Shown here: positions 5,366 through 58,200 of the stretch, piece by piece
How positions within the stretch are numbered: position 1 is the first letter of the stretch
How the letters are laid out: the number at the start of each line of letters is the position of its first letter
IMG/VR virus record: IMGVR_UViG_3300050035_000066
Location: 4,477-68,476 of that record
DNA length: 64,000 bases
Reading direction: 5' to 3' (one strand)
From: a virus
The notes under the pieces: generated by a model
The model's input: only the letters and a program-made list of their open reading frames with translations
Databases searched by the model: none
Told to the model about the DNA's origin: nothing
Made by a program: the position numbers and the translations under genes

Positions 5366-5938
5366 TTAGATTCGTTTACCAATCAGGATCGTAAACATAG
5401 GTTGGTAACTAGTCCCATTACTCACACTAGACTTGAGTGCTCGGGCTGCAAAGTCAATGTCATAACTCTTGATCTTCGCGATCGGAATTAGCACCCCGGT
5501 ATTCCACTGCCAACCAACATTGGGGCCATTCCAACTAATCCCGGCTGCTGTCGGAAAGTAGATGTCCTTGCCACTGATAGTGACCTTCTGAGCAAGACCT
5601 GCACCTACATTCGAGGTCACTGTGAAAGGTTTCAGTGAATTAGGCAGAACGTCAAATACCGTAAAGGTGGATAGGCCGGTAGTGTTGATATCTCTTGAAT
5701 AGAGAGCCGTCCCAGCAACCGCAGGCTTGGCATTGATGCTGTAGGACAAGCCAGCAGCAACATAGTTCTTGCCATCAAGGGCAGGAATGGGTAGAGGCGA
5801 CACAGGTGCAGTCGGATCGGGAGTCGTAACCACCGGAACCGTGGAACTGGAATCCTGTGCGTGAGCGACGGTGCTCAGAACCAAAACAAAAAGGATTGAG
5901 CTAAGGAGAATACGGGCGAAACTGAAGGTCGTCTTCAT
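5366..5938 (-). CDS. Exported beta-strand-rich protein (possible small outer-membrane beta-barrel)
   Basis: Signal peptide MKTTFSFARILLSSILFVLVLSTVAHA|Q, Pro/Thr linker, alternating amphipathic strands ending MFTILIGKRI. Confidence 0.6.
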   Translation of the reverse strand: MKTTFSFARILLSSILFVLVLSTVAHAQDSSSTVPVVTTPDPTAPVSPLPIPALDGKNYVAAGLSYSINAKPAVAGTALYSRDINTTGLSTFTVFDVLPNSLKPFTVTSNVGAGLAQKVTISGKDIYFPTAAGISWNGPNVGWQWNTGVLIPIAKIKSYDIDFAARALKSSVSNGTSYQPMFTILIGKRI

Positions 5939-5948
5939 GGTTTATCCT

Positions 5949-6239
5949 TTACTTCGAGTCGGGTTGAGTTGCGTCGAGGTTGTCGGGGGAAGCCGGATCT
6001 GCATCTGGTAACTTCTTGTTCGCTTTTGAAACCTTGGCCCAGATCGTCAGTGCAATAACCAGATTGCTACAGAAAAGGCTGACCTTGGTAAAGATCACCG
6101 GATGGCCAACGAATATTTGGCCAACCTGTTCCCGAAAATCGGCTGAAGAGTTGAAGTAAACAGCAAATGCCACCAACCCAATCCAAACTGCATGGGTAGT
6201 AGCACTCTTCTTCTGGAACCAAAGCTTTAAGCGATCCAT
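5949..6239 (-). CDS. Putative holin (2 TM)
   Basis: Two hydrophobic segments, charged C-terminal tail, upstream of endolysin. Confidence 0.55.
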   Translation of the reverse strand: MDRLKLWFQKKSATTHAVWIGLVAFAVYFNSSADFREQVGQIFVGHPVIFTKVSLFCSNLVIALTIWAKVSKANKKLPDADPASPDNLDATQPDSK

Positions 6240-6292
6240 ATGTGTCCTCTAATTCCTGTTGTAGTACAACATATCTTGGTGGAAAGTTCAAT

Positions 6293-6508
6293 TCATTTCC
6301 AATGTTGGGCGAGAATCTCCCCAATTACCGTGAAAAAGGAGAGTGCGCTGGCTGAAAGCATCAACCATGCCACTTTCGCCATCATAGCCACGGAGCTTTC
6401 AAGTTTTGTGATTCTAATTGTCAAAGGAGGTTCACCATTTCCTTCCCAAATCACCTTTTTGATCTTGTTGACATCTACCTGAAGCTGTACTTCCAGATCT
6501 GTATGCAT
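6293..6508 (-). CDS. Small membrane protein (holin/antiholin-like, coiled coil + C-terminal TM)
   Basis: GNGEPPL...RITKLE coiled coil followed by a hydrophobic helix. Confidence 0.55.
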   Translation of the reverse strand: MHTDLEVQLQVDVNKIKKVIWEGNGEPPLTIRITKLESSVAMMAKVAWLMLSASALSFFTVIGEILAQHWK

Positions 6509-6649
6509 TCCTGAGCCTCTCTAAAATATAAATATAGGGTATACAGCTTTTGGAAGATCACCCGAATTTGAATCTACAGTGTATTTTTGCCCAAGTAAAC
6601 CTTTAGGTAAGGCATGCTGAACGAAGCCATGTCTGTCTTAATCACCGCC

Positions 6650-6764
6650 TCATCATTCCAAGACCTTGTCTATCTCAACGGTTGCTCGAACTCAATTCGA
6701 ACTTACCAGTTCCGAGAGTGATGATAAACCGAAGTTCTTTTTTGTTCTCAAATGAAGTTGTCAT
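6650..6764 (-). pseudogene. 5' relic of a contractile-tail baseplate hub-like gene
   Basis: TAA-ATG coupled to the fibre stop: MTTSFENKKELRFIITLGTGKF, then a stop; another frame gives RATVEIDK. Resembles N-termini of myophage baseplate hub proteins (from memory). Confidence 0.4.
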
Positions 6765-9700
6765 TTAAAATCCGAACGGATAAGAGAACTGAACACCTTT
6801 GATTGCTGAAAATGATGGGGCAACCAAATAGACGTGAAAAGTTCCGGTCATTGAACAAGCGGTATTAGTGGCCGTATTTGAAGTTGAGTTGTGGCCTTGT
6901 ATTCCCCAAGCAAATAGACTTCCTATCACTCCATCTTGCTGAAAAATTAAGAATCCATCAACATCTCCAACGAAATCCCGCAAACTACTTCCGCCCGAAG
7001 CCCCAACGACTGAAGACGATCCTCCACTTGTTATCGTATTCAAAACCTCATTGCCGTCCGTTTGGGCATCATATTCATAACGGCAACTTGAAGTATTTGC
7101 CGCAATTGCAAATGCGATTGGATCGCTAGTTGAAGCTCTAGCAACGCCGAAGTTGAAACTCCAATAGGTATTTGCCGCAAGCGTAACAGTCTCATTTGAC
7201 TGATAAGCCGATACACTTCCAGGTAAGGTAACGGGGGTTGAATTGAAAGTGAAGTTTACCTTACTTGGAACAGCGCTCGCCGGTAAATAGCCGGTTCCGC
7301 TCGCATTCCAGTTAGTTCCGTCATAGCAAAGATTTATCGGCTTATTCGCCGGAATGCTCAAGCTCGCGGTAAGGGTTGTTGTCCAACCGCTCGCGCCGGC
7401 AACCGCTACACTCTTGGCTCCCAGGCTGTTAATATTCACCGTCAAGCCGGCTCCGCTGTTCGCTGTTGTCGTTTCATACACGAGACAATTTCCGGCCTGG
7501 GGAATAAAGGTATTTGCAACTGTGCAACTCTGGGCCGTTCCGCTCGCCGAAGTGTCTGAGCAAGTTTGAGGCATGAAGCCGGTAATCGGAAGGTTTGTTT
7601 CGGCTGCCCTGCTATTTTGAGAAACGTTGCTCCCACCGGATCCGGTTCCACAGGTTGGGCAAGAGATCACTGATCCGGTTATAACAATTGGGGAAGTTGC
7701 GGTATAGGAAGCGGGGCTCGAACAAGTTCCGTCAAATTTCAAATATCCCGCCGTGCAAGATCCCGAAGCCCAAAGGGCAACGATATCGGAGAAAGTGGCC
7801 GCAGCCGTTGTATTGAGAGCCGTTCGCTTGATGACTCCGTTGGAACCTGGATCCGCAAGGCCGCCCGATGCGCTCGTGCAAGTTCCATCGTTCTTCAGGA
7901 ACCCCGAGCAAGATCCGCCCCCGAATAGGGCAACAACATCACCATATGCGGGAGATCTCCAGGCTGAGCCCGTTGAGGCAGCAAGGCCGCTCGCCGGCCA
8001 TCCGATAATGCAATTGGTTCCGACTGGATATCCTTGTGAGTTCGTGCCGATGCAATTCGTATTAATCACACTTGGGAAGTAAGGGCCGTTGCTCCCATCG
8101 ATCCCAAACATTTCCCCGGTTCCCGTCTGATTCCACCAGGTTTCGTTAAATTTACCGCCGGATGTAGCGTAGTGAGCAAAACCGAAGCCGGGGAACATAG
8201 ATCCCCCGTAGACTCCCGAGCCGATGTTGTCTGGGTATCCGCTGAAAAGGGAAGTTTGAGTTGCTGTATAGTCGTTCAGCATATGCGCATACATGCCCAA
8301 CGCCGAACTTAAGATGCCGCCGGAATCATACATATAGGGGTTGTTGAGATTATTGATTGCCCCGTAAACATCAATTACCCGATCAAAATACTGGCCGCAA
8401 GTTGTTGAGCAATGTGGAGCCGTATTGGTATCATTCGGTAGCTGGGATTTCACCCAGTTGTTCAAATCGTTCGCGCTGAAAAAGGCCAAATGACAACCAA
8501 AATCAGTCGTGTTCCAAGGCTGAGGCGTGAGAGTGGACATACTCACAACTCCCCCATCAGCGTGAATGCTTGCCGCTACAGCGAGTAAATCCGCCTTGAG
8601 AGTGGCATTGGATGTGCAATATTGAATATCGTTGCGACCGCCAGTCAACTCAACCAGGACTGTGCTGCCGGGATTCGAAGCGAGCCAACTCGTGATGAGT
8701 GGATGAATGGTCGTTGAATAATTTGCGGCCATCGAAACGATTGTGGATCCGATTGGCAAAACTGTTTTGTGGGTTGCTTGCTTAAAGAAAGGAAGACTTG
8801 CCGCATAGAACGGCAAAAAGTAATTTGCATTTTCAGCATTCCCGTAGCTCCCGCTAGTTGCGGAGATCAAAGGACAGGCTGCGGTCCAATGGGTAGAATC
8901 CACAACGGAGGCAACCTGGAAGAGATCCAGGCCACTAGTCCATGCGGCATAAGGGGAAACCATTGCCGGCCATCCCCCAACCGCATCGGTTGAAAACCAT
9001 TCATTTAATACAAGGTTGTGAGCCGCTGTCGAATGGAAAGAGCAAACCCCAGCGCTTTGAGTCCAACCCGTCATGGGTATTGCCGTTCCATGTCGAAAAG
9101 CTCCCGCGTCATCCCCAATCGTTGAATCGGGGCCAGCCCAGATAACGAGAGACGTTGAGCTTAAAAGCAAAGGGAAAGTGTTCGGGGTTGCCCATTTTAC
9201 CCCGTTCGTCATCGTATGATCAGCCGTTATAACTTGCCCATCGGAGCCAACCGGGAGCCGTTGGGGAGATCCGGCCGAGCCCCCAACAATCATATCCCCC
9301 AAAGTTGTCATTGGGTTACTAAATGTTCCGCCGGTAAACGTGCAAGCTGTTCCCGTACAACTTACCCCAGGCCCCGAGAAAGTGAATGCCCCAGGGGAAC
9401 CGTTAATGCTCCCAACAACGTTACTCGCTTGGAGTAATTGATTAAACATCGTTCGCGCATCAGTAACGCTGGTAATTGCCGAGTCGCTCGTAACCACTGA
9501 TGCAATCGGAATATCGGAGCCAACGAAAGCCGTACTCCTAACGGCCGGCACGCAACTCGAAGCCGTATTAAGGTAAACGCGATTCGTTACACTTGCTGTC
9601 ATTGTGAGAGTTCCGCCGGCATATGTCACAACGGATCCCCCGCAAAACGCGCGGCCGGCAGCAATGTTCAACGTAAGGCCGCTTCCCTGGGTAGGAAGGT

Positions 9701-9992
9701 AAAGAGTAGTGAAGACTTGTGCCGATGTGGTCAAAGCCCCAAATGGAACCCAATTAGTGCCATCGCTAATACATGTGCGATGAGTCGATCCACCAGCAGC
9801 AATGCAATCAGTTCCTGAAGCATCATCAATAGTTCGGATAACATCTCGTGATTCAGATGCAGCAGGAAGTTGGGAGATATGGACAGGAAGCACACGGAAA
9901 TTACCCTTCACATCAGTCGGACCTTGAACGGTCTGACTGAATATGAAGGTTGGCAGGAAGATGAAAGGTACAAGATACTTGAGAATCTTCAT
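6765..9992 (-). CDS. Large tail-fibre/spike-like protein with signal peptide and SGNH/GDSL-like domain
   Basis: 1075 aa, Gly/Ser/Thr-rich; MTTLGDMIVG...RLPVGSDGQV fibre motif; GPDS and GGRND SGNH-like blocks; 26 Cys; N-terminus MKILKYLVPFIFLPTFIFS|Q; located in the tail module. Confidence 0.75.
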   Translation of the reverse strand: MKILKYLVPFIFLPTFIFSQTVQGPTDVKGNFRVLPVHISQLPAASESRDVIRTIDDASGTDCIAAGGSTHRTCISDGTNWVPFGALTTSAQVFTTLYLPTQGSGLTLNIAAGRAFCGGSVVTYAGGTLTMTASVTNRVYLNTASSCVPAVRSTAFVGSDIPIASVVTSDSAITSVTDARTMFNQLLQASNVVGSINGSPGAFTFSGPGVSCTGTACTFTGGTFSNPMTTLGDMIVGGSAGSPQRLPVGSDGQVITADHTMTNGVKWATPNTFPLLLSSTSLVIWAGPDSTIGDDAGAFRHGTAIPMTGWTQSAGVCSFHSTAAHNLVLNEWFSTDAVGGWPAMVSPYAAWTSGLDLFQVASVVDSTHWTAACPLISATSGSYGNAENANYFLPFYAASLPFFKQATHKTVLPIGSTIVSMAANYSTTIHPLITSWLASNPGSTVLVELTGGRNDIQYCTSNATLKADLLAVAASIHADGGVVSMSTLTPQPWNTTDFGCHLAFFSANDLNNWVKSQLPNDTNTAPHCSTTCGQYFDRVIDVYGAINNLNNPYMYDSGGILSSALGMYAHMLNDYTATQTSLFSGYPDNIGSGVYGGSMFPGFGFAHYATSGGKFNETWWNQTGTGEMFGIDGSNGPYFPSVINTNCIGTNSQGYPVGTNCIIGWPASGLAASTGSAWRSPAYGDVVALFGGGSCSGFLKNDGTCTSASGGLADPGSNGVIKRTALNTTAAATFSDIVALWASGSCTAGYLKFDGTCSSPASYTATSPIVITGSVISCPTCGTGSGGSNVSQNSRAAETNLPITGFMPQTCSDTSASGTAQSCTVANTFIPQAGNCLVYETTTANSGAGLTVNINSLGAKSVAVAGASGWTTTLTASLSIPANKPINLCYDGTNWNASGTGYLPASAVPSKVNFTFNSTPVTLPGSVSAYQSNETVTLAANTYWSFNFGVARASTSDPIAFAIAANTSSCRYEYDAQTDGNEVLNTITSGGSSSVVGASGGSSLRDFVGDVDGFLIFQQDGVIGSLFAWGIQGHNSTSNTATNTACSMTGTFHVYLVAPSFSAIKGVQFSYPFGF

Positions 9993-10005
9993 TTTTTGTC
10001 CTGTC

Positions 10006-10488
10006 TTATGCTGGGGGATACATCATTGGGGTTACGTAACTGAATGTGTTGTCCAGTTGTTTGGCGAACATCTGTTGACTGATCGCATTCGGATCCAAGG
10101 AAATATCACCATGGCTCGTGAAAGCAGCAGGCCAAACAAATGTGCGTCCACCAACAGAGTCTTGGACGATACGAATGATGATCATTGGAGAACTCAAGTC
10201 AATTCCAACAATCGTGGACGAAGTGACATTGCCTGTGAGGGTTAACTCATTGGCAAAGGTCGCACCCACATTAAAGATTGGGGTGACACTGAAAGGCACT
10301 TCGTAAATGGCATCACTCGGACCGGGAAGTGGAGGGGAATCAAGAACCTTGAGCCAGTCAGAGACACGTTTGATCTCAGAAAGATGTCGAGCAACACGTT
10401 TGACTGTCTCATAAGCGTTGCCGATCAGACGATCGATCAGAACTTCATGACCCCCAATGGGGTCTTCAGAATCTCTGTACATTGACAT
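10006..10488 (-). CDS. Short tail-appendage anchor/adaptor (N4 gp66-like N-terminus)
   Basis: LIDRLIGNAYETVKRVA motif of N4-like appendage N-termini plus one small beta domain (LTGNVT...QDSVGGRTFVWP). Confidence 0.7.
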   Translation of the reverse strand: MSMYRDSEDPIGGHEVLIDRLIGNAYETVKRVARHLSEIKRVSDWLKVLDSPPLPGPSDAIYEVPFSVTPIFNVGATFANELTLTGNVTSSTIVGIDLSSPMIIIRIVQDSVGGRTFVWPAAFTSHGDISLDPNAISQQMFAKQLDNTFSYVTPMMYPPA

Positions 10489-11190
10489 TTAACGCCACCC
10501 TCTTTGTCGGAAAACGATGCTGGTAGTGGAAATGCTGGTGTTGACTGTGTCATCCTGAGTAACGCTGGCACACTCGTTCTCATAGGTGTCATGGTGTCCT
10601 TGTGCGATTGCCATTGCTTCTTGCGTGTTCATGCCTGAATAAATTTTCCAAGCAATGAAGGCAGTCAGAGCACTGAAGAGAACTTCCGGCAGTTCCAATT
10701 CCGTCTCCATCTCATCAAGAGTTAGAGGAGGGTGTTTGGCCTGATATGTGAGTGATAATACCACACCCGGAACTGCTCTGGGAACCTGTAAGACTTTTGT
10801 TGTAGGGGTGAAAAGTGAGTCCGGATTGCCTCGATCATTGAGTGGCAGATCCCGACCAAAGCCATCGGTTACCCCAATCACCTTGAGCAGATCGTCCGTA
10901 AAGGGTTCACCGATATCGTTAATGAATGGTCGAGGGTCACTGTGCCCATCCCAATTAGATTCAGCGAATTGTGAACTAAGTGGGTAGGTTGTCTTGCCTT
11001 CCCGTTGCTCAATCAATAGACCCTTTTCCTTCAAGATAAATCGAGTGTAGAGGTCGAGCAATCCGTTGTTAGTTTGAAAGATGACCTTGGGTTTGTGCCG
11101 TTCAGAAATCTCACCTTCACCAGAGTCACCCATGCTGAGGTTGCTCAACTCATGTAGAGATAAGTTGGTGAAGAGTTCGTCCACTGTCAT
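10489..11190 (-). CDS. Head-tail adaptor/structural protein (N4 gp67-like)
   Basis: LSLHELSNLS, GLLDLYTRFILKEK, C-terminal FRQRGW; follows terminase. Confidence 0.85.
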   Translation of the reverse strand: MTVDELFTNLSLHELSNLSMGDSGEGEISERHKPKVIFQTNNGLLDLYTRFILKEKGLLIEQREGKTTYPLSSQFAESNWDGHSDPRPFINDIGEPFTDDLLKVIGVTDGFGRDLPLNDRGNPDSLFTPTTKVLQVPRAVPGVVLSLTYQAKHPPLTLDEMETELELPEVLFSALTAFIAWKIYSGMNTQEAMAIAQGHHDTYENECASVTQDDTVNTSISTTSIVFRQRGWR

Positions 11191-11202: not shown

Positions 11203-12798
11203 CTATACAATATAGGATGAAAGAGCAGTTCGCTCATCAATTTTTTCGTCTTCCCACATTTGTTCCCCACCAACTTCCGGAGGAACAGCATCAGCAGGTT
11301 TCCATGGTTTGAGGAAGCCGAGCATCGAAACTGTGTCAAGACAGTCGTCCTTTCCCTTCAAACCATTCTTTGTGGCCAGTCGAATCTGACCCAAGAATTT
11401 CTTCATGATGACGGTTAACTTCATCTCTTCTGGAAAGAACATCTTACCGGCTTTAAACCAAGGGACTACAAGATTGAACCGAGCAAGTTTATCCACGATG
11501 GGTCGGATGCCGGGATCGCCACTCTTCTCTGAAGATGCAAAGTTGAACCAAACATTTCGAGTAATCATCTCGTTCTGGAGCCAAGTAACAAAAGCACCTT
11601 GCTGCCCGGTCACTTCGATGCCAACTTGTTGAGGCTTATACTCTTGCACCAATCTAAAGAGGGTATCGATAGTGACATCCATGGTCTGCCTTTCGGCCTC
11701 ACCGTCAACCCAAAGCCAGTCACCATTTGAACTGTAGGCCCAGACTGCAATGGCCGAGTCATCAGCCTTCTTCTTTTTGGATGTTGCGAAGTCCGTTGTA
11801 ATGTAGAAGTTATAAGAACTCTTGACTGCCAGAAGTTTGGTTCTGTTGTACCACTTTATCTCGGAGTCTTGCACGAGACGCTCCTCTTCAGAGGAGATCC
11901 GGAGCATCAACTCTTGCTGGAAGCTATCCAACTTCCCCGTTTCCACAGCCATTTTATACTGTTCTTCAACATAATCAAAGGTGAATCGATCCGGCCAAGC
12001 TCCGGAGAACTCTTCTCGCGTGCATGGATACTTCTCGCAGACTGGCCACACGTTGACATCCCACGCTCCGGACTCGACCGCTTCTATAAGAATGTCCTGT
12101 TTGTTGAACGGCGTGCCGTTGAAGATGATCTTCCGACGAGTTGGGTCTAATGCGTGGTTCACTCCTTTATAGACTGTGTTCTTGATCGTTAGCATGGCGG
12201 CCATGGAGTCAGCGTCGTCATCACTGACGAGATCATCCAATATGGCGAGCACAGGACGCTTCCCAAAGATCTTGGTTCCACGGAGTCCGGTCTTCGCACC
12301 GAACATTTTTATCCCAAGCATCTCCCCATTCTTGTTCTTGAACTCAATGTAGTTATCTGTAAAGTGAGCTTCAGGCAACCACTGTTGGAGAAATTCAGAG
12401 GCGTTGTATCTGAACTCGATGTTCTTGCGAGCAGACTTGACACCGTTTTCCATGGAGTCCGAGACATAGATCAAACTATCCACGTACCCAAAGTTAGGTA
12501 TGTGGTGGAAGACTGCTAGAAAGAGTGTGAAGTATTCCATGAACAGAGTGGTCTTGGCTGCTCCTCTAAAACATATGTTTGCAATGTAAGCCGATGGTTC
12601 GACAATTTTGTCGAGCATCTTCAGATGCACAGGGGGTGTCTTGTGTGATTCCCCCACCGTTCCATTCACGAGCTTGATGAAGTTCATGAAGGTCAATGCA
12701 AATTCCGAGGGCATGTATTCAGGGGAATTCAGGATAGAGTAGTCCACCTGATTCAACCACTGGTCAAGCTCCTGCTTAACTAATGCTGGCACTTGCAT
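11203..12798 (-). CDS. terL: Terminase large subunit (N4 gp68-like)
   Basis: CFRGAAKTT Walker A, LAILDD Walker B, ITTDFA and KDDCLD nuclease motifs. Confidence 0.95.
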   Translation of the reverse strand: MQVPALVKQELDQWLNQVDYSILNSPEYMPSEFALTFMNFIKLVNGTVGESHKTPPVHLKMLDKIVEPSAYIANICFRGAAKTTLFMEYFTLFLAVFHHIPNFGYVDSLIYVSDSMENGVKSARKNIEFRYNASEFLQQWLPEAHFTDNYIEFKNKNGEMLGIKMFGAKTGLRGTKIFGKRPVLAILDDLVSDDDADSMAAMLTIKNTVYKGVNHALDPTRRKIIFNGTPFNKQDILIEAVESGAWDVNVWPVCEKYPCTREEFSGAWPDRFTFDYVEEQYKMAVETGKLDSFQQELMLRISSEEERLVQDSEIKWYNRTKLLAVKSSYNFYITTDFATSKKKKADDSAIAVWAYSSNGDWLWVDGEAERQTMDVTIDTLFRLVQEYKPQQVGIEVTGQQGAFVTWLQNEMITRNVWFNFASSEKSGDPGIRPIVDKLARFNLVVPWFKAGKMFFPEEMKLTVIMKKFLGQIRLATKNGLKGKDDCLDTVSMLGFLKPWKPADAVPPEVGGEQMWEDEKIDERTALSSYIV

Positions 12799-49253: not shown

Positions 49254-52200
49254 TTAGTAATCCGCACCACCAAGGCTCCAGAATGGTCCCATGTTTAATC
49301 CCTTGAGAGCATTCATTGGTCCAAGTGAGTAACCAAGATGACCTGAGAGAATTTTTCCGAAGATGTTGTCATCGATCACTGAACCAGTCTCATTCAATCC
49401 CGGCATGAATGCTGTCATGAGGGAACCAAAAGGATTATCTCTCATCATGCTCAAGGCAATCTTGGCAATGCGAAGTTTGTAAGCTAAGAACCATGTTATA
49501 CCCATTGTGTCGAGATAGTTACGAGTACGACCAGCTTTCCAATCGAAGTTGACATACTCTTCACTGACTTTACTGAGAGCTTCTTCACTGCTGATCTTTT
49601 CACGTTTGGTCATGTGATCATAGTAAATTCCCTTGGCGATGAAATCACCATACTCCATGAGTCTTTCCAGACCTTTGTAGAGTGAAGTGTCCCGAGCCAC
49701 GATGGCATACTTGAGCGGTGTCTGTATTGCAGTTGGTGCTTTGTCAATTTGCTGCTCCAACCATTCAGACACTCGACCTGAAGACAACTTCATTTCATTC
49801 TCGTCTTCGAGTTCACCGATCGTATTAAGATCACCATGCTTGATCAGCGGATAGATACTCATCCGTTCATAGCTGTCTTGAATCGACTGCAATTTGGCGT
49901 TGATCTTGTGAATTTCTAAAGGACTCGTTGTGGCCCAACGATCTGCTTCGAAATCCATCTCCTTCTGTCTGAACTGCTGATAGAGGTGAACTTCATGAAG
50001 TTTGGCTCCAATTCCCTGGACGATATCGAGAGTAGGTACACCACGTTGGATTAACTGACGCACGTTGTCCATCATGATGCGAGCAGGGATGGTTATCGAC
50101 TTCACAATCATGTTGTTACGCATGTTGCTCATGAAGCCCTGAATGGTCGTCTCAGTCTGCATCACTCGTTTGTAGGCATCGATCCCAAGAAAAGAAGTCA
50201 GTCCATCCTTGACGGCTCTCTGTACTTCTGGTGACCACCGAGTATTGCCTGTCCACATGTCACCAAGGGAAGGTTGGCGATATCCAATTACCTGATCGAC
50301 TAGCTCCTTCCGGACCATGAACTCTTTCCCAAACTTAGATTTGATGTAGCTTCTAGTTTCAGGAGAGAAAAGAGCAATGGCATCCTTTTGGACGGCATCA
50401 GTGATCTTACCATCAAAAAGATTGATATATTCCGACTTCCTATTTCCCATTGGGGAAGCAGGATTGATTCCCTCCTCGTAGTTATCTTTGAGGGTGTCAA
50501 TCAATGTGTGGTTCATCTGGGTGGCCATGTGTTCTTCCACCTGACGACCACGCCACACACCTAACATCTTGGATAGATCTTGGCTCTGCTCACGTCTGGC
50601 AGCCATTACTGGGTCAAGGGCACGCTCATAAGCGAAGACCTGACCACGCTCATTGAAGAGTGGCATGAGATTCTCACCCATGGATTTGTCAAGGTGAGCA
50701 CGGTCTGCAATTCGCTTGACCAGAGTCTCATCCACGATTCGACCAGCAGTGTTGTGGGTTGAGAAACCCCAAGTTGAATCGATCCCACTCACTGTGTGGT
50801 CGATATTCTGGACCATACCCTGAGAGAAGGCCATCTTGCCACTCAGCGGAGCGTAATAATAGCCACGAGATTCCTTCTCCGAATCCAAGAAAGAACCTTT
50901 ATAATCCCCGATCCGGTGATAACCCAAACCCATCAAGCGACCAAATTCACTATCCTTGTCGACAATTAAAGACGTTCCCTGTTCTGGAATGCTTGGGATG
51001 AATCCCTTGTAGTGATTGTTCTCAAGCAACTTACCTTCGACTTTGGCGAGTTCACCTTTTCGTGTGTTATAGAGATAGGTGAGCATGAACTTTGAGGCTT
51101 CAGGTTTGTTCTTCATTACATCTGAAAGAGCCTTCTGGCGATCAGCCGTCATGTGATCCAAAGCGTAAAGTGAGGTGAGGTGATCGATAGCTTGCACTGT
51201 TTGCTTGGAGACATTCAATTCCTGACGACGAACGACACCTTCTTTCTGAAAATCGGTGGGACGATAAGTCACACCACGCTCGTTATAGAGATGAGCAACT
51301 GCATTTGCATTGCGAAGAAGATTGTCACCAGCACCTTCGCCCATCATGTAACCGGCGAGTTGCTTCATCTTCCGTTGGTAGATTTCAAAGTTCTTTGGAT
51401 CAGAGGTACGGACCTGAGCTTCCAACTCTTTGACTCGATCAGCACGCTTGTCTGGGCTGGACAGTAGTTCAAAAAGCTGCTCCACGGAGTGTGTGTCCAT
51501 AAAGGATGTCGCATCAGATTTTCCCCAACCATGGAACATATGTTGGTTGAGTTCGGGTGTGAGTGTGTGGTCAAACTTCTCATTGAGAAGATCTGGAACC
51601 CTCTTCCTGAAGTTCTGACGAATCTGTGCTGACATAGTTTTGATGACCTTTACCATGTCATAGACCTTACCACTCGACTGAGTACGTCCAATCATTTCTG
51701 TAGCCAGAGCATGAAGTGATCTGTTCAAACCTTCAACATTATTCAGTTGATGGATAAGCATGTCTCCAGCTAGTTCACCATTCTTCTTCGAGATCAGAGA
51801 TGAAACCATTGATACGATTCCACCAGCAATCTTTCCGAACTTGGTTGGTGAATTTGAGATTCGTTCACCTAACGACTTGCCAGCATCTGAAGCATAGGTG
51901 AGTAGGTCTACCATCTTCTGATCGGCAAAGTCTGTTGCACGATGGAATTTGTCTGCACCCATGGAAAGAACAGTTCGTTCATCGAGAGCTTTCTCAATGA
52001 GGTGGTTAGTCAATACCTTCATGGCATCAGACACGTTGGTTGTTCTTTTGTCACCCGACAGGGTTGTCGAGAGCCAATCCATCAAACCATTTCCAGCATT
52101 GTTGAGAACTGCATCCAGTGTGCCTGCTGTGTCCTTTTCAGTTTTAGGCATCGGAACTTTGTTCAGCATGTCACTGAAACTCTTGCTGGTCATGGACAGA

Positions 52201-55200
52201 GCCATGAAGGTGGGCAGAATCGAACCCTTTTCTTCTGCTCCATCGACACCAGTGAGAATCTTATACTTGGCTTGAGCCATGTTTGATTCACGTTCCCATT
52301 CAGGTGTCCCTTCTTTTAAGTTTGGATCCATGAAAGCAGTGAAATCCTTTGTGTGGTTGAGCACATTCATATAGTGCTCTTGCATCCGGTTCATCACACT
52401 TGGATCCAATGTCCTCACAGTCTGAAACATCGCATTGAGCATTGAGAATGTATTCGTTTCGTTGTCCGACATATCTGTGAAGGCAGACTGCACTGCTCCA
52501 GTGGTTTGTTTGATGACTCGTGCAAGTGTGATATCTGCACGACCCTTTATAGCTAATCTTTCAGTTTTTGGATCGGTACCCGGACGTTTGGTTGCTTCTT
52601 CAACTTGAAGATCCATGTCCCGATGCATTACTCGATCAATGTTGGTGCGGAGATCCGCGATATGTGAATCCTGATCTGCGGTGTAGTGTATCCCAGTTGA
52701 TTCACGAAACACGTCACTAGGTCTGAAAGCTGCATGAGCAATAGTCAGTGCATTAAAACGTAATTGAGAGAGAACAGTATTGTCCACTCCAACTGAACGA
52801 CCTTGCCAGATCGTCTTCTTGATGAGATTGATTACAGCTTCCTTAACTCGACTCATAAAGGTAGCTGTAGTCGCTTTCAAATCACTTGTAACATCTGGAT
52901 TAGTCAATCCCCATGCCATAAATTCATTTGCAGCACCTGCATAGTCTCGATCTTGCAACTTCTCATTGAGAACATCCCAGAGTTGCATAACACCCTCAGT
53001 ACTATGTCCAAGATTGGTATCGTCTGCTTTGTTATAGAACTGCATCATCAAATCATGGACACGACTGATTGCATCTCCGATTACAGGAGGTACATGCTCA
53101 TTGTTGTAGTAGGCACGAACCTTTTCTATAGTTGCAGCATGAACCAATTCGTGTGTGAGTGTTTCTGCTGTCGGACTGATCAAGTAGAGTGTCCGAGTAT
53201 TCTCGTGGAAGAATCCCTTTAATTCACCTTTATTACCCCAGCCTTGATCATTACGTTCAGCAATGTGATCAAAGCCAAGAAACTTTGTAGAGTGAGCTTG
53301 CACTTGTTCATGGGTACCGACCACTACAGTGACATCATCGATTCCTTTTGAAGCTTGAAGCTGGCTCAACAAAGTTTTGAGTTCACGACCAACTTTCAAT
53401 CTGGTAATTAGTTTGGGCAGATCATCTGACTTGATGACTTGCACACCAGTTTTGGAATCAGTGATTCCGATACCCTTGAGAATTTTGCGTGCTGCTTCTT
53501 CACCTGCTGCATCGGATACAGGACTCTTGGTGATAACTGGTTTGATACCATCAGATTGTCCACCCTCTTTATTAGGCTGCATCTCTGTTGGTGTCAGTGT
53601 CTCTACTTTGTCTGAACCAGACTGATCGAAGTTAGTATCTGAAATTGGATCCAAAGAAGAAACATTCTCCTTCAAAGCCTCGGGCTGATACTTGCTGTGA
53701 TCATCGATAGCTGGAATTGGCTCCATCTTTTTCTGAGCCTCAATCATCTTGGCAGCATAACTATCTCTCAAGAGATCGGTAGCTGCATCATCACTCATGC
53801 CTTCAGAGATACCCTTCTCAATTCCATTGTGGAAGGGAGAGGCAGCCGAAGCCATCTGATCGGATGACATTCCCATCTCTTTCAATACTTCATGGCGAGA
53901 GTCGATGGAAGCTGCTGTCCAATTGAGATTGTCTGCTGTAGAAGCGATATCACGCATGATGTGATTCACCATGCCAGTATGACCACCCTCTTGTTCCATC
54001 ATTTCGATTACATCCGGATTAGGTACTTCCGGAGTACGAAGCAACTGCTGAGCTAGTGGCATGTTGTCACGGAGAGTTTGTTCCTTGTTACCTTTGAAGT
54101 CAGGTGCTTCAGTGATTTGAGTTGCTTCAGCATACTCATTAGCGAGTAACTGATGAATCGCATCCTGTTGACCCAACATTTTGAAATAGGCTTTACGAAC
54201 TGACTCAACTGGATTGCTGTTCTGCCAGACATCCATGGCTGCTTCATTCGCAGTCTTGCTATAGTCTTTGATTTTGTCCAAAGGCATATGCAGACCGTCG
54301 AAGACAGGCATGATGCCATCATGAATCTTGTTCAAGATGTGCTGAATCATTCTGCCATCGCCAAATCCGAGAACGGATGCTGGCATTCCACCTACACCGA
54401 CTGGTCCGGGTACATCAACCTTGGGTGCAGTTCCATACTGACCATTAAGAGCTTGGTTGTATTGAAGAGACTTCTCATTGTAGATAGCTTTTTTGACAAT
54501 GAGCAGATTTTGCTCATCCGTCTGAAGCAAAGGAGCCAAATTCTTAACAGAATCAATTGCTTTATCGATCTGTTCCTCCGAAAGAAAACCTCCCGGCTTG
54601 TAAGTTTTGTCATTGGCTTGACGATCAGCTAATGCTACGCGGAGAGCAGCACGAACTGCTTCTGAATAAACAATGGAGTGTGTGTTGGTAGCTTTCTGGA
54701 TCAGAGCCGATGCTTCGAGAACATCCTTTCCAACCGTGTCAGAGATTGCAGCCGTGAGAGGCTTCACCAAAAAGGTCTTCATGTTACTTTGCAAAGTCTT
54801 GAAATGTTCAGGACTTGCTTTGAAGTTCTGAGGATCAATCTCTTTGATGAAAGGAGCATTGATTGGTGTACGATCGGCATTAGTGTTGCTCAAGAAATAC
54901 TTCGATTCCTTTTTCCAGAAGATGAGTTGCTGACCAAACACTTGATTGAGGTCATCCTTCAACTGAGTGTAATCACGAGCCGGATTGTCTGACTTGGGGA
55001 ACAGAGCCTTGGCAGGATCTTTCTCTCCACTCTGGAGAGCTTCTGTCATGTGGCTATACAGACCTGTCAGCAAATCGTTGCTGAGATTGCCTGCGATTCC
55101 ATTCTCGCCCGATCCATAGATGGTGATGGTCAGTGGACTCTTGGCAATGGTTCGAGCCAAAGTCAAGAAACCCTTGTCATTTTCCCCAACACCGGGGAGG

Positions 55201-58200
55201 TAGCGTTTCGTTAGACGAGTAAGGGCATCCATGTGATTAGTGAGAGCTTTCTTCTCACCATCTGTGGCTGTGTCCTGCGAATTGATTTTGTCGATGAGTG
55301 CATACTCATAATGTTGAGCACCTGTCGCTGTGGTGGCATACAGATCAGGCATGTCCTCAGTAGAAAGTTCATGGAGAGCAATCTGTTTGGGTCCAAGAAC
55401 CAGACCACCTTTGCGAACATTTCGCACCCAATTGGTATTGAACAATCCATTGGCCAACATGACCATGGCATTGATCGGACCATTGGTCTTGCCATCAGCT
55501 TCGAGATAGAGGCCAGTCCGGAAATTGGATTTATCTGCGTGCTGCTCCAATCGAGCATTCTCTAACAGTGCGTGGAGAGCCAAAGGAGTCATGGCACCAA
55601 GATCATCCTTGGAGTCGATCACTGCTTGTTTGTAGGCTCCCAGTAACTCTCCAGCGAAGGCCGATTTGTCGCCCATGGTTCCTTCAGGAAGAGTGTGGAG
55701 TCCGTCACCTTGTTGTGCAACCCAAGTGTGCAAGAGCTTCATTACTGGGGCCAAAGGACCAGCCAAGAGAGCATCAGTCTTGACCTTATTGACTTCCGGA
55801 GAGTTCTTCTCGACCTTCAATCCAAGAGCCTGTGCTGTTGCCAGACCGAACGCAAGGCTATGTTGGGGGTCAGTCATATCCAACTTTGACCAAGTAGGAA
55901 GTAGAATCTCACGAACCAGCTTGCTGGCTTGTGGATTGTTGGCTCCCAGCATGTGCAGACGACCTACACGACTCATGTTGTGGCCAAAGTATTGGGCCAT
56001 ATCAGCAACATTCTCACCTGTGGCCTGTGCCCGGTTTGCCATCTGACTGAATAGACCTGTGAGGTGTTCAGCGGCTGTCCAAACTGTGATGTTCTGTCCC
56101 TCAAGTGTAACTTTGTGGGAAGTATTCACTTTTGACAGATCGCTTCCTCCCCCAAAGAAATCTAGGAGGGAACTCATGCCCAGAGCATGATACAGATTCC
56201 ACTGAGGAAGGTTGGGACGATATTCAGTCTGGTTGGCCTTCTCAACAGCCGACAACTGACGACCACTATTCTTGGTGTCACTTCCCATCTGGGTCTTGGA
56301 TGCTTGAGGCTTATTGTCTTCAAAGTGGAACTGTTGTTCCGGCTTGATCACAACTGCATCAGCCAGAGCACCGGGGTAGGCTGAGAGATCTTGAAGAGTC
56401 TTTCCGAGTTCACCCAACTCCTTACCGGGAACCAAACGAGTAACAGTCTGTTTGATTTCTGGATCAATCTCTACTTGCTGATTTTCAAGCATGTGTAGGT
56501 TGACCATGGCACGAAGAACTTCTGACGACATCGCTTCAACGATGCCATCGGCGTAGGCACGGTCAGCAGTCTTGAGAGTATGCAGTCCCCAGAATTGACG
56601 AATTGCATTTGTAATACCATCTTTCACATCTTCAACTGAAGTTGTGGACTGTAAAGAATTCTTTAGTTGGTCATCGAAAATCTCGTGACCAACGATGCTT
56701 TCCATTTGGTCATCACGAAGCTTAGTGGTAGTGTGCCCTACTGTAATAAACCAATGAAGTCCTGCCATGACCGCTGATTCAAGTAGATGAGTATTGTAAC
56801 TGTGGATCTGACCACCTGCACCATCATCATGTGCTTCAACGAGGTTGAGCACCTTGCCATTCTTGAAACTATTGATGGTGTTGTCGTTATCTGTAGTACG
56901 ACCTGTTAACAACCAGTTTAATTTGGTCGTATCTTTGTACTTCCCTTGCAGGAAGTTATCCAGATTCATTCGCATGGTGATCATCAAGCCACCGAAGTTC
57001 ATCAAGGGAGCAGCTTCCTCTGCCGTGATCCCTTCTTTAGTTTTGAGTCTGTCCTGTAATCCTTTTGGATCTTCAACAATCGGAGCCAAGAGAGCTTTGT
57101 AAGCCTTTGACAGAACGTCTGTCATCTCTCGCTTGACTGTTGAACCAGTGAAATCCTTAAAGCTTTTGCTCGATGAAAAAACTTCCCGTACCTTCTCAAC
57201 AGGAGAATCGATTCCAGTGATTCGTGTTGTTGGCTCACCATTCTTCTGTGTGGCGAAAGCCTCGTGGAAATAGTTGACCACCTTACCCGGAACAGAAATC
57301 AGATTTGGATACAGTTTCTTGATGCCACCTGTGGTGACTTCTTTAACTGGTTCAGCAGGAACCGGTTTGGTATCGAGTGTGGCTGCCGTAAGTGGCTTGA
57401 TCGGGAGAGTTTGAGTTTTACGGATAACTCCATCATCATCAATACGATCACCAGTCACCTTGGTGACTTCAGGGAATTGTTCTTTTAATTGCTGCATCAA
57501 AGGACGGATTGACTTGATACCTAGTTCAGCAGTCTTTCCTTCACGTTGAGCATCGATAGCTTCTTTGACAGTTGATCCAAGACCAACCCAGCGAACAAAA
57601 GCAGTCTTACCATCATCGCGTAATTCAATAATGGCAGAGGCAATCTTTTTGTCTCCCTCCATGACATCAGTCTTGTAGGCCGGATTTCCATCCTTGTCTT
57701 GTTCAGGAGCACGCTCAAACTTACCAAGAGTGTGTTCAGTCGAGATAATAGGCTTCTCAACTTTAGGTGTGATTTCTTCCTTTACGGGTGTTGGTGTGGC
57801 TTCTACAACCACAGGTTTTTCAACCGGAGTTTCCTTCGGTGTGAGTCGATCACTTAGAATCTGACGACGAGTTTCCTGCTTAGGTGTCCGTTCTTCAATA
57901 GCATCCAGTTTAGCCAACTGACGTTGTGCTTGTTTATCAGACTGCTTCGCAGCTTGCTCAGTCCACTTTGCTTTCTCTGCATCTGAAGTTTCGTCACCAG
58001 CCTTGAAGTTGAAAGCCTTCTGCACAGCAGTTGCTTTCTTGATGTTTTTAGTGACAACACTTTCAGGATTTTGATTAGTCAGATTATCCTGTTGCTTCTG
58101 TTCATCAGCTACTTGTTTCTGATACTGATCACTGAAGTCAGCGACTTTACGCTCACCACTCTTGAACTTTGGTGCAAGTTCGGTACCAGTTCCATCTGCA

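Follow-up and report, generated by a model that had tools for sequence, protein, structure and literature searches.

A predicted Sec-exported, cysteine-rich fibre-like protein encoded beside a short gp66-type anchor in an N4-like phage

It is generally assumed that tailed phages fold and attach their fibres in the reducing cytoplasm. The locus described here, part of a window of 64,000 nucleotides (the whole stretch of phage DNA that was analysed), raises the question of whether a fibre may instead be exported, oxidised in the periplasm and joined to the virion at a late stage.

The genome is that of a complete N4-like phage; the contig ends share an overlap of 126 nt, from which it follows that the assembly is circular and complete. 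A PHROG search matched families 38, 2125, 1216, 2120, 2050, 2109 and 2220, an N4-type late-gene set in N4 order, and N4-type matches among the remaining late genes comprise the portal, the terminase large subunit, the gp67-like structural protein and others. By this gene set and its order the phage can be assigned to the N4-like phages (Schitoviridae). A 3896-aa ORF at window positions 49254-60944 is a candidate gene for the giant virion RNA polymerase. The terminase large subunit gene (11203..12798, minus strand; PHROG 38 at 1.7e-93) lies in a region with ∼66-71% nucleotide identity to cultured N4-like phages among the matches listed, and a gp67-like virion structural or adaptor protein is encoded at 10489..11190 (minus strand; PHROG 2125 at 9e-74, with Pfam SU10_adaptor below its cut-off). 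A survey of ORFs and PHROG matches found no other fibre gene anywhere in the circular genome, including the part outside the window, in agreement with a sequence-only reading that had named a single large fibre-like gene in the tail module, at 6765-9992. A wrap-around ORF outside the window was considered as a fibre gene and rejected, as it corresponds to PHROG 2220 and has membrane segments.

The fibre-like gene and its predicted signal peptide

The gene at 6765..9992 (minus strand) occupies the slot of N4 gp65 and encodes a fibre- or tailspike-like protein of 1075 aa (P0001), as judged from the ORF and its translation, 2944 library matches at E<=1e-3 and an AlphaFold model. The N-terminus of P0001 reads MKILKYLVPFIFLPTFIFS|QTVQ, with Lys2 and Lys5 in the n-region and an uncharged hydrophobic stretch of 12-13 residues; the h-region, YLVPFIFLPTFIF, contains two prolines. 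The predicted cleavage site, S19|Q20, has Ser at −1 and Ile at −3. The n-region, the h-region and the small residues are those expected, at the level of sequence, of a Sec and signal peptidase I (SPI) substrate. The putative signal peptide comprises codons 1-19 (9936..9992, minus strand) and coincides with a helix at residues 2-17 of the model, and Gln20 is invariant in an 11-row alignment of fibre N-termini.

Signal peptides were called with a home-made heuristic for the n-, h- and c-regions. Of the 79 ORFs of this genome it flagged 7, of which only the P0001 ORF and a 190-aa ORF at 5366-5938 combine a clean signal peptide with a Gln directly behind it. Among 156 homologues of P0001, 107 are signal peptide-like by the same heuristic, with a small residue|Gln site in 98 of them. 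When 24 non-self homologues were inspected by eye, all except P0021 were seen to begin with a hydrophobic, signal-like N-terminus (P0016 is truncated at its 5′ end). Because so few ORFs are flagged, only two of them with a clean signal peptide and Gln, and because the feature is conserved in homologues, the predicted signal of P0001 exceeds chance; as far as sequence can tell, it is a conserved family trait.

The upstream gene ends with a TAA at 10006-10008, and the ATG at 9992 begins 13 nt past that stop, preceded at a distance of 6 nt by an AGGA Shine-Dalgarno (SD)-like motif (9999..10002, minus strand). The public database gene call for this ORF (P0007, 769 aa) starts at Met307, which would be expected if the signal peptide were an annotation artefact and the true start lay downstream, at Met307 for example. 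Such an artefact is highly improbable, since residues 85-300 align to many homologues (≤57% identity in alignments of ∼170-220 residues, and 74% within a segment of 94 residues), which indicates that the region upstream of Met307 is coding. In addition, residues 98-181 of the N-domain are modelled with pLDDT 82-91, the ATG has its AGGA motif and its position close behind the upstream stop, and the signal peptide-bearing ORFs of relatives begin at +0 to +22 from the stop of the anchor gene. The signal peptide-like N-terminus and the AGGA motif noted from sequence for this gene are thus upheld, and the former is conserved across a large family.

A Gln at +1 of the SPI site occurs in P0001 (S|Q), in P0003 (A|Q) and in the 98 homologues mentioned above. 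P0003, an outer-membrane-barrel-like protein encoded within the window, is Lom-like by size and predicted fold, and its site reads AHA|Q. SD sites are rarely used by Bacteroidota, and SD-like motifs lie upstream of 37 of the 79 ORFs of this genome, versus 11% of random 13-mers, which together argue against a Bacteroidota host. The sole genome match is a Gammaproteobacteria MAG, the few Atlas records neighbouring P0003 are mostly from Acidobacteriota, and the anchor domain described below is present in 2 of 401 genomes of one phylum surveyed with regard to the host. A Gln directly behind the SPI site is the Q-rule of Bacteroidetes signal peptides, as set out in PMC5837995 and PMC10367356; the former also gives high Q-values for Ignavibacterium and some Chlorobi, Acidobacteria not being among the groups that it analysed. 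According to PMC10367356, Porphyromonas phages encode five Q-rule proteins of unknown function, which are not called fibres there. The Q-rule systems are those of Bacteroidetes and their phages, whereas SD-like motifs are common here.

Domain architecture and cysteine content

P0001 is predicted to be modular. Residues 20-88 (9729..9935, minus strand) comprise the N-terminal peptide of the mature protein, QTVQGPTDVKG, and a small domain with Cys63 and Cys74; they are modelled with pLDDT <50, and segments resembling them occur in P0018 and in fibres from loci L052, L053 and L058. A conserved β N-domain (QVFTTLYLPT...RTMFNQ, residues 89-185; 9438..9728, minus strand) shows ≤74% identity to homologues and pLDDT 82-91, and in many homologues sits directly behind the signal peptide. 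The phage tail-fibre repeat (PMTTLGD...GQV...W, residues 222-272; 9177..9329, minus strand) by itself matches many fibre proteins without signal peptides, with up to 17 matched stretches.

Residues 275-590 (8223..9170, minus strand; pLDDT ∼95) are predicted to form an SGNH α/β fold, resembling carbohydrate esterases. Foldseek matches include 9kr1 (7.7e-5) and 7toh (1.2e-4), GDSL and sialate esterases, entries 4iyj, 4rw0 and 7pzh with TM-scores by target of 0.54-0.65, the tail fibre of cyanophage A-1(L) (7e-4) and, weakly, an endosialidase. Ser290 of block I (GPDS) and Asn454 of block III (GGRND) are conserved in the homologue alignment, and no conserved His is found at the block V position, where His570 of P0001 is replaced in most alignment rows. 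As this canonical His is not conserved, esterase activity of the predicted domain is uncertain. The Pfam family Lipase_GDSL_2 is absent from P0001 and scores below its cut-off of 32.9 bits in P0013 (27.6 bits) and P0020 (29.5 bits).

Further towards the C-terminus, residues 680-760 (7713..7955, minus strand) hold two copies of a Cys-loop motif (ALxxxGSCxGxLKxDGTC) that is repeated in P0029, P0011 and P0013. They are followed by a highly conserved four-Cys β module common to the mosaic fibres (residues 780-905; 7278..7655, minus strand; pLDDT 70-90), with invariant alignment columns including Cys811 and Cys823; 20 viral loci were found via this module. The variable C-terminal tip (residues 906-1075; 6768..7277, minus strand), presumed to be the specificity domain, is modelled with low confidence, and BLAST alignments extend well into it in few homologues only, e.g. 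P0015, P0019, P0025 and P0029. P0001 ends in ...YPFGF, and the C-termini of the homologues are unrelated and often non-aromatic; a check for an autotransporter barrel or a T9SS C-terminal domain returned no Pfam family in P0001 at E<=0.01. The homologues are mosaic, reach lengths of ∼2500 aa and, in other viral contigs, sit behind baseplate-like genes, a placement judged by visual inspection of N-termini and gene lengths. With its tail-fibre repeats, its Foldseek matches, its mosaic homologues and their baseplate-adjacent positions, P0001 looks like a fibre.

All 26 cysteines of P0001 lie in the mature part and can be arranged as 13 sequential pairs: 63/74, 117/147, 212/217, 317/373, 459/500, 528/532, 647/661, 695/705, 746/757, 778/781, 811/823, 836/889 and 970/1046. 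The number of cysteines and their frequent close pairing had been noted before, and every motif quoted at the time (CTGTAC, CSTTC, CSGFLKNDGTC, CTAGYLKFDGTC and CPTC) is present in the translation. The members of the sequential pairs of P0001 co-occur (both present in 166 cases, neither in 168, one only in 86), compared with 89, 136 and 132 cases, respectively, in a control with shifted pairing. The 107 signal peptide-like homologues have a median of 1.95 Cys per 100 aa, and in 88 of them the number of cysteines is even; for the 49 homologues without a signal peptide the corresponding values are 0.70 and 31. For 36 distinct short anchors the median is 0.00 Cys per 100 aa, 20 of them being Cys-free, versus 1.94 for their downstream neighbours. 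This pattern, dense and even in fibres with a predicted signal peptide and near-absent from the anchors, supports the view that the fibres mature in an oxidising compartment, which would predict it.

The short anchor protein and its neighbours

The neighbouring gene (10006..10488, minus strand) encodes a Cys-free protein of 160 aa (P0002), characterised by tblastn, a family alignment and AlphaFold. In the model (pLDDT 84.7) it consists of helices at residues 10-50 and one β domain at residues 60-160. Residues 5-80 match, in tblastn, the N-termini of tail-spike, appendage and EPS-depolymerase proteins in 10 Erwinia N4-like phage records (E 2e-4 to 2e-3), and PHROG 29955 ('appendage') matches weakly (E 0.0096). 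A helical virion-attachment N-terminus of the N4 gp66 type can thus be assigned to residues 1-55 (10324..10488, minus strand), a motif of which also occurs in gp6 of the Erwinia phage Fifi051; the statistics are weak, and the gene has the right position behind the gp67-like gene. Residues 58-160 (10009..10317, minus strand) form a conserved C-terminal β-sandwich domain, identified by the family alignment and carrying the source's own Pfam label PF26209, with pLDDT 84-98 over residues 61-160. The tblastn matches and the model therefore fit the description of this neighbour as a gp66-type N-terminus plus one small β domain.

The anchor domain has 143 relatives in viral contigs, with 30-57% identity across unrelated phages. 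Its fold matches are middling (Z 5.1-6.7, all <8) and comprise the glycan-binding modules of CpaA (Z 6.7) and StcE (Z 5.1), the C-terminal domain of the tailspike Solidus gp83 (Z 6.1) and, as the only match in CBA120, residues 79-180 of TSP4 (Z 5.4, RMSD 3.5-3.6 over 92 residues). Viral proteins that bear the name fibre or tail fibre also show this fold, and a domain of the anchor type sometimes itself lies behind a signal peptide (L075, P0053). As the fold matches are middling, that in TSP4 being the XD1 domain and others being glycan-binding modules, the anchor could itself act as a small binding protein.

A synteny scan, seeded only on the anchor C-domain, retained 78 loci from the 143 relatives, among them 42 short anchors, 12 of which have no downstream sequence. 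In the other 30 loci the adjacent gene encodes a predicted signal peptide followed by Gln in 23 cases and by another residue in five, and the remaining two have no adjacent gene of ≥150 aa; an adjacent protein without a signal peptide was found in none of the 30. Signal peptide|Gln was seen in 12 of 189 upstream control genes, and a looser anchor group includes six loci in which the adjacent gene lacks a signal peptide. The co-occurrence of short gp66-like proteins and signal peptide fibres, for which a survey of related genomes had been suggested, is thus observed in 28 of 30 loci with downstream sequence. The short anchors form 20 clusters at 70% identity, and several loci are near-duplicates, so that these counts are only partly independent. 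In most loci the fibre gene begins 0-22 nt past the anchor gene.

The pairing includes N4-like relatives with unrelated fibre bodies. In one of these, L027, TerL, the gp67-like protein and the anchor are 81%, 59% and 44% identical, respectively, to those of the present phage, and the fibre (1069 aa, signal peptide|Gln) starts at +0 after the anchor; BLAST of this fibre against P0001 gave no match. Fibres encoded next to anchors vary in their mature N-termini. A QT.QGPT..KG peptide is common only to the N4-like subgroup and a subgroup with 164-aa anchors, and the conserved anchor domain is consequently without an obviously conserved partner. In Fifi051, a cultured N4-like phage of Erwinia, terminase, structural protein, gp66-like protein and hydrolases follow one another in the order seen here, and its hydrolases show no signal-like N-termini. 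No cultured representative of the arrangement with a signal peptide-bearing fibre was found, and no precedent for such a fibre with a short anchor was found in the literature.

A candidate two-compartment assembly route

Phage G7C is N4-like, and its gp63.1 is an SGNH esterase tailspike. The G7C pair gp66/gp63.1 and CBA120 TSP4 with TSP1-3 combine an anchor or platform protein with a separately encoded enzymatic tailspike that binds to it, an arrangement which the present pair may resemble. In N4, gp65 is reportedly not attached through gp66. PMC8825819 describes gp66 and TSP4 as an anchor plus XD docking domains, rules out the binding of a trimeric partner across the threefold axis for an XD1 flanked on both sides, and mentions XD1 of T4 gp9; the linker positions given there place TSP4 residues 79-180 in XD1. 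Docking in G7C and CBA120 is by XD2 and XD3, whereas the anchor described here matches XD1 and has been reduced to one domain and 160 aa, and P0001 differs in its predicted Sec signal peptide and 26 cysteines. The system would be a variant of the adaptor-plus-tailspike arrangement, distinguished by a fibre with a predicted signal peptide.

T4 gp9 is a small trimeric socket with a helical N-terminus and a β-sandwich, which receives a separately assembled fibre last, in a step that can be spontaneous. The proposed attachment of fibre to anchor would resemble this late step; in contrast to the route proposed for P0001, T4 produces and attaches its fibres within the cytoplasm, with the help of chaperones, and they have neither signal peptide nor disulfides. 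The g3p protein of Inoviridae is a receptor-binding virion protein that has a Sec signal peptide and acquires periplasmic disulfides before joining the particle, like the route proposed for P0001, but inoviruses extrude through the envelope, whereas the present phage is of the tailed, lytic, N4-like type, with a capsid and tail that assemble in the cytoplasm.

In the proposed route, P0001, with its N-terminal attachment region, tail-fibre repeats, SGNH-fold esterase-like domain, four-Cys β module and variable tip, would be exported to the periplasm via Sec and cleaved ahead of Gln20, which may then cyclise, and would fold there with about 13 disulfides. A fibreless particle would be assembled in the cytoplasm and meet the fibre once holin and endolysin have breached the envelope. 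The fibre would then join the tail, most likely via the Cys-free protein, which appears to retain the gp66-type virion anchor and to end in the small conserved β domain. There is good inferential support for export and oxidative folding; for the complete reading, in which P0001 is a receptor-binding fibre or tailspike with a genuine Sec signal, matured in the periplasm and attached at lysis, the chances seem about even. Keeping a periplasmic fibre and a cytoplasmic particle apart until lysis looks inefficient, and the two prolines in the h-region, the Ile at −3 and the lack of an obviously conserved partner for the anchor domain also speak against the route.

A different role for an exported P0001 is rather unlikely: it could be a secreted or envelope enzyme or adhesin outside the virion. 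An example would be a receptor-modifying esterase that removes or hides the receptor of the infected cell, thereby preventing the loss of progeny to debris or blocking superinfection. In that case the virion would bind by other means, possibly via the small C-domain of the 160-aa protein, whose fold resembles the CpaA and StcE modules and the Solidus gp83 domain and recurs in proteins named as fibres. A signal peptide and a cysteine signature indicate an exported protein, not a virion protein, and receptor modification would be a fitting task for the esterase-like domain. Llp and Cor of T5 are signal peptide-bearing proteins encoded beside receptor-binding genes and are not known to be virion parts. 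PMC12309495 describes lambda Lom, encoded beside tail genes, as such a protein outside the virion. These proteins are Sec-exported, as predicted for P0001, but are small envelope proteins without fibre architecture. The P0001 family has the full mosaic receptor-binding architecture, with fibre repeats, variable tips and up to ∼2500 aa, and we know of no exclusion protein of such size. A role outside the virion would moreover leave an N4-like genome with only a 100-residue conserved domain as receptor binder; a specificity determinant would not usually retain 30-57% identity between unrelated phages, and the close spacing of fibre and anchor genes in most loci suggests a stoichiometric pair.

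Export itself may also be doubted. Among the characterised fibres of tailed phages, none is known to assemble outside the cytoplasm. The hydrophobic N-terminus, with its two prolines, might serve assembly or trimerisation, tether the fibre transiently to a membrane or be the target of another protease, the cysteines being reduced or becoming oxidised after release. PMC10367356 suggests that, in the major capsid proteins of Porphyromonas phages, predicted signal peptides reflect cleavage by a prohead protease and not export. A non-exported P0001 is nevertheless distinctly unlikely, because the n/h/c layout with small residue|Gln recurs on unrelated mature N-termini (98/107), the same type of site is present on the outer-membrane-barrel-like P0003, and the even Cys counts, with nearly threefold enrichment over relatives without signal peptide and over Cys-free anchors, are hard to explain in the cytoplasm.

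Returning to the virion-fibre reading, the conserved Sec signals, the even and dense cysteines and the Cys-free anchors would imply a virion component that is matured in the periplasm and joins at or after lysis. It is tentatively proposed, with somewhat less than even confidence, that a broad set of uncultured tailed phages, including N4-like podophages and phages with myovirus-type baseplates, use a two-compartment assembly for host recognition, in which receptor-binding fibres that are Sec-exported, processed at a site ahead of Gln and disulfide-bonded in the periplasm are added at lysis to a Cys-free socket already mounted on the particle in the cytoplasm. If true, this would be a new assembly route in Caudoviricetes, and would explain why signal peptides are present here and absent from cultured relatives with the same gene order. 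The receptor-binding proteins of uncultured phages would then need a different annotation, as such fibres may be missed or shortened by gene callers and by programs that predict fibres, as happened here at Met307, and expression for host-range work should be periplasmic, with Dsb enzymes. The route would also bear on the coupling of lysis timing and virion completion and would make disulfide-stabilised binding scaffolds available, while a signal peptide followed by Gln would be a sequence marker of possible use in host assignment for soil phages.

Architecture of the signal-peptide fibre P0001

The fibre-like protein P0001 is encoded by a 1075-aa open reading frame (ORF) at 6765-9992 on the minus strand. 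The sequence-only reading of this gene is borne out in its particulars: the ATG lies 13 bases past the stop of the upstream gene and is preceded by AGGA six bases 5', and the N-terminus consists of MKILKYLVPFIFLPTFIFS, followed after the predicted cleavage site by QTVQ. The translation contains 26 Cys residues, none of them in residues 1-19, which form 13 sequential pairs, and all five of the Cys motifs quoted in that reading are present. The public gene call of the long ORF starts at Met307 (P0007, 769 aa). This start is judged to be wrong, because many homologues can be aligned to residues 85-300 (identity up to 57% over ~170-220 residues, reaching 74% within a stretch of 94) and residues 98-181 are predicted to fold (pLDDT 82-91). 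The public collection clips both genes, the fibre from Met307 to 769 aa and the neighbouring 160-aa anchor protein from Met3 to 158 aa; automatic gene callers may systematically clip fibre genes that carry signal peptides.

Pfam and PHROGs are almost silent on P0001, and a tblastn search of 50,697 cultured-phage records gave no match at E<=1e-5. Relatives were found in metagenomic libraries, 25 by a word-indexed search and 2944 (E<=1e-3) by an exhaustive one, and they are mosaic. P0001 itself can be divided into the signal peptide (residues 1-19), a short peptide with a small Cys63/Cys74 domain (20-88), a conserved beta domain that directly follows the signal peptide in many relatives (89-185), a common tail-fibre repeat (222-272), an alpha/beta domain (275-590), two Cys-loop repeats (680-760), a highly conserved four-Cys beta module (780-905) and a variable tip (906-1075). 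AlphaFold models based on a 65-row alignment are confident for residues 98-181, 275-590 (pLDDT ~95) and 800-905, and residues 2-17 are modelled as a helix. The central domain matches SGNH-fold carbohydrate esterases in Foldseek, including a polyvinyl-alcohol esterase (7.7e-5), an acetyl-xylan esterase (1.2e-4) and several GDSL and sialate esterases; the tail fibre of cyanophage A-1(L) (7e-4) and, weakly, phage endosialidases are also found. The family of this domain (residues 275-590; 8223-9170, minus strand) retains a Ser in block I and an Asn in block III but lacks a conserved His in block V; the domain is therefore termed only esterase-like. A conserved YWD…D motif is conspicuous in the family instead, as is an H(T/A)DG motif. 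As modelled, the architecture of P0001 is that of a tailspike-type receptor-binding protein. An autotransporter- or OMP-like C-terminus was considered but is not supported: the final residue of P0001 is F, yet the homologues have unrelated C-termini, and Pfam is silent.

The signal peptide is a trait of the family. Inspection by eye reveals a hydrophobic, signal-like N-terminus in all 24 non-self matches of the word-indexed search except P0021. Our n/h/c heuristic, which misfiles a few homologues in both directions, classifies 107 of 156 homologues as signal-peptide-bearing, and in 98 of these 107 a small residue is followed by Gln; the other 49 are mostly fragments or share the fibre repeat only. 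Since the mature N-termini behind the Gln are of many unrelated kinds, the Gln goes with the cleavage site rather than with any one domain. Such a Gln pattern is described as the Q-rule for signal-peptidase-I substrates of Bacteroidetes (PMC5837995, in part), and five Porphyromonas phage proteins of unknown function are reported to obey it (PMC10367356, in part). Within the window phage the same heuristic flags 7 of 79 ORFs, of which a clean signal peptide with Gln at position +1 is found only in P0001 and in P0003.

P0003, a 190-aa protein (5366-5938, minus strand), has a clear signal peptide that ends in …STVAHA and precedes QDSS. It is flanked by a two-TM holin-like protein and the endolysin, and its neighbours in the ESM Atlas are small outer-membrane beta-barrel proteins (feature scores 0.96, TM 0.62-0.66). 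A Lom-like envelope protein is one possible identity, an unusual component of lysis another. A PagL-like deacylase, proposed by one Atlas row, was set aside in view of the lack of His in mature P0003; the catalytic residues of PagL are His and Ser.

The Cys residues follow the signal peptide in their distribution. The median Cys content per 100 aa is 1.95 in signal-peptide-bearing homologues versus 0.70 in the others, and the Cys number is even in 88 of 107 versus 31 of 49 cases. When the sequential Cys pairs of P0001 are traced across homologues, both partners are present in 166 cases, neither in 168 and one only in 86; with the pairing shifted by one Cys, the corresponding counts are 89, 136 and 132. 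Some pairs, e.g. 317/373, do not show joint presence or absence. At the level of sequence, this density, parity and pairing is what is expected of disulfide-bonded exported proteins, and not of cytoplasmic fibres.

Genome organization and the short anchor

The virus record comprises 68,476 bp, with the window covering bases 4477-68476, and is labelled linear and 93% complete. Its two ends share 126 identical bases, located inside a coding frame, from which we conclude that the record is a circular assembly and the genome in effect complete. On the minus strand the genes are arranged as in phage N4: a gp69-like protein (PHROG 2109), the terminase large subunit (PHROG 38), a gp67-like structural/adaptor protein (PHROG 2125), the anchor P0002, the fibre P0001, small membrane and exported proteins, the endolysin (PHROG 7), and the portal (PHROG 1216) with further N4-type structural genes. 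A 3896-aa ORF occupies the position of the virion RNA polymerase. Among the matches listed, the terminase region shows ~66-71% nucleotide identity to cultured N4-like phages of Erwinia, Klebsiella, Achromobacter, Pseudomonas and Escherichia; the rest of the 8-kb query has no match to cultured phages. No tRNA genes were found. A conventional full-length fibre outside the window, which the sequence-only reading had named as evidence against its proposal, is absent: the sole large ORF there belongs to PHROG 2220, the rest being N4-type structural genes. This PHROG 2220 gene (>705 aa) spans the contig junction and encodes membrane segments near the C-terminus. Downstream of the fibre, the stop codon is followed by a gap of ~250 bases without ORF (6509-6764), a 71-aa ORF with a hydrophobic segment at its C-terminus (6293-6508, minus strand) and a holin-like 96-aa protein with two hydrophobic segments (5949-6239, minus strand).

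The 160-aa anchor P0002 (10006-10488, minus strand) is free of Cys, as had been noted from the sequence. Its residues 5-80 match by tblastn the N-termini of Erwinia N4-like phage proteins that occupy the gp66 position (tail-spike, appendage or EPS-depolymerase), and the match to cultured phages is limited to these N-terminal 80 residues. The predicted structure (pLDDT 84.7) contains helices in residues 10-50 and a beta-sandwich in residues 60-160. This C-terminal domain (C-domain) defines the family (source label PF26209), the N-termini of which vary: P0002, P0033 and P0034 have the N4 type, and most of the other members have a motif common among tail-fibre N-termini. In BFVD the anchor has 132 matches (E<=1e-3), and several of these bear the name fibre or tail fibre. 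The fold matches of the C-domain are middling: Z is 6.7 for a CpaA module, 6.1 for an Acinetobacter phage tailspike (its C-terminal domain), 5.9 for a capsid spike of a Pseudomonas phage, 5.4 for residues 79-180 of tailspike TSP4 of phage CBA120 and 5.1 for StcE. By the linker positions in PMC8825819, the TSP4 segment corresponds to the XD1 domain; according to that paper, CpaA and StcE are structural neighbours of XD1, and in TSP4 XD1 is not the docking domain, as linkers occupy both of its faces. In P0002, by contrast, the C-domain is terminal, which leaves one face free. The modelled fold would fit a socket or a small glycan binder alike and does not by itself decide between them. At locus L075 (~9450-10380, plus strand) and in P0053, an anchor-type C-domain (…TLTGNVTSST…) stands directly behind a signal peptide, and the L075 gene adjoins a normal anchor lacking one. 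This arrangement might reflect homotypic contacts between such domains, or an exported form of the socket.

Co-occurrence of short anchors and signal-peptide fibres

The survey of related genomes proposed in the sequence-only reading reveals that short anchors and signal-peptide fibres indeed co-occur. A scan of viral contigs seeded with the anchor C-domain alone yielded 143 relatives, from which 78 loci were kept, 77 of them with an anchor ORF. Short anchors, defined as having at most 270 aa with the domain at the C-terminus, numbered 42, 12 of them without downstream sequence. At the other 30 the next gene carries a signal peptide in 28 cases, followed by Gln in 23 and by another residue in 5; two lack an adjacent ORF of 150 aa or more, and none has a neighbour without signal peptide. 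The looser remainder of 35 comprises 12 loci with signal peptide and Gln, one with signal peptide and another residue, six with a neighbour lacking a signal peptide, 13 without adjacent gene and three without room for one. The start-choice routine prefers starts that yield signal peptides and was applied alike to control genes (upstream genes of at least 250 aa), of which 12 of 189 have a signal peptide followed by Gln.

The fibre ORF mostly starts 0-22 nt past the anchor stop. The 36 distinct short anchors, which form 20 clusters at 70% identity, have a median of 0 Cys, with 20 being Cys-free; their neighbours contain 1.94 Cys per 100 aa. Four loci (L025-L028) have an anchor of N4 type. Compared gene by gene with the window phage, L027 shows 81% identity for TerL, 59% for the gp67-like protein and 44% for the anchor, and its 1069-aa fibre, with signal peptide and Gln, has no BLAST match to P0001. 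Other loci have baseplate-like genes upstream, as judged by size and N-termini. An N4 terminase was found in 0 of 10 viral records holding the fibre module; these phages appear not to be N4-like, although an empty search of this kind, having no positive control, shows little. At least two kinds of phage backbone carry the pairing of signal-peptide fibre and Cys-free anchor. A viral-contig scan with P0001 alone gave nothing; alignment-based scans did find loci. The cultured N4-like Erwinia phage Fifi051 is like the window phage in gene order, but its gp66-like protein has 362 aa and is followed by two hydrolases which, unlike P0001, lack a signal-like N-terminus.

At some loci, two or three consecutive large proteins (up to 1943 aa) with signal peptide and Gln lie past the anchor or baseplate genes (L020, 6416-17068; L017, 5331-14670; L022, 4633-8567). 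L058 and L062 encode a 1289-aa fibre without signal peptide that ends in an anchor-type domain, followed by a fibre with signal peptide and Gln.

Proposed export and attachment, and the host

In a first step, the fibre would be exported via Sec, cleaved before Gln20 and oxidatively folded. The conservation of the signal, a Gln site that P0003 has as well, and the Cys statistics speak for this step, which as read from sequence is probable. The exported fibre would then serve as the receptor-binding protein of the virion, being added once the inner membrane is breached at lysis and docking either to the 160-aa socket or to the tail itself. Such an addition is supported by the fibre architecture, the position in the tail module, the pairing with an anchor across lineages and the lack of another fibre gene, and we give the whole chain, from export to attachment at lysis, about an even chance. 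Two other readings question the first step itself. A hydrophobic N-terminus that does not cause export is unlikely, as it would leave the conserved signal and the Cys statistics aside, and a wrong start codon, as implied by the public call at Met307, is hardly credible in view of the alignments upstream of that residue.

The main rival accepts export and holds that P0001-type proteins never enter the virion, acting e.g. as a receptor-modifying esterase or a surface adhesin. It has the esterase-like domain on its side and the anchor pairing against it, and is less probable than the chain above but more so than the two readings that deny export or the start. Several observations speak against simple docking: the mature N-termini of anchor-adjacent fibres are diverse, the anchor-type domain is itself found behind a signal peptide in a few cases (L075, P0053), its fold matches are only middling, and in N4 itself gp65 does not sit on gp66. 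A universal docking peptide was sought and rejected, a QT.QGPT or ..[VI]KG motif occurring in just 3-4 of 24 distinct mature N-termini of anchor-adjacent proteins. The predicted complex of P0002 with residues 20-200 of P0001 scored 0.00, in a run without controls, and weighs neither way on binding.

With regard to the host, the Gln rule suggests Bacteroidota or some other group in which Q-values are high. Shine-Dalgarno sites are rarely used by Bacteroidota, and the frequency of such motifs, 5' of 37 of 79 ORFs versus 11% of random 13-mers, argues against a host from this phylum. The nearest Atlas clusters of P0003 carry mostly Acidobacteriota labels from very few records, and Atlas taxa serve as leads only. 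A search of species-representative genomes gave one match, in a Gammaproteobacteria MAG, in the genome of which no match to the anchor domain was found; weak matches to this domain occur in 2 of 401 genomes of its phylum. A 638-kb Gammaproteobacteria MAG contig contains the phage-like stretch L022 (205313-221705), with two signal-peptide-bearing fibre-like genes and ORFs resembling, by eye, DNA-polymerase and replication genes; its second fibre ORF seems to shift frame near the end, where ORFs 6072-8567 and 8347-8751 overlap.

Systems of adaptor plus tailspike are already known in N4-like phages, such as gp66/gp63.1 of G7C, with CBA120 as the paradigm (PMC8825819, in part). What appears to be new here is a distal protein with a conserved Sec signal and Cys signature, combined with a minimal, Cys-free anchor. 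The 50,697 cultured-phage records searched include no example of this combination. Searches of article texts in the open-access literature gave no precedent for a tail fibre or receptor-binding protein that carries a signal peptide, and passages of PMC5723332, PMC12923769, PMC3556154 and PMC12309495 gave none either. If true, attachment after export would constitute a new assembly route for tailed phages.
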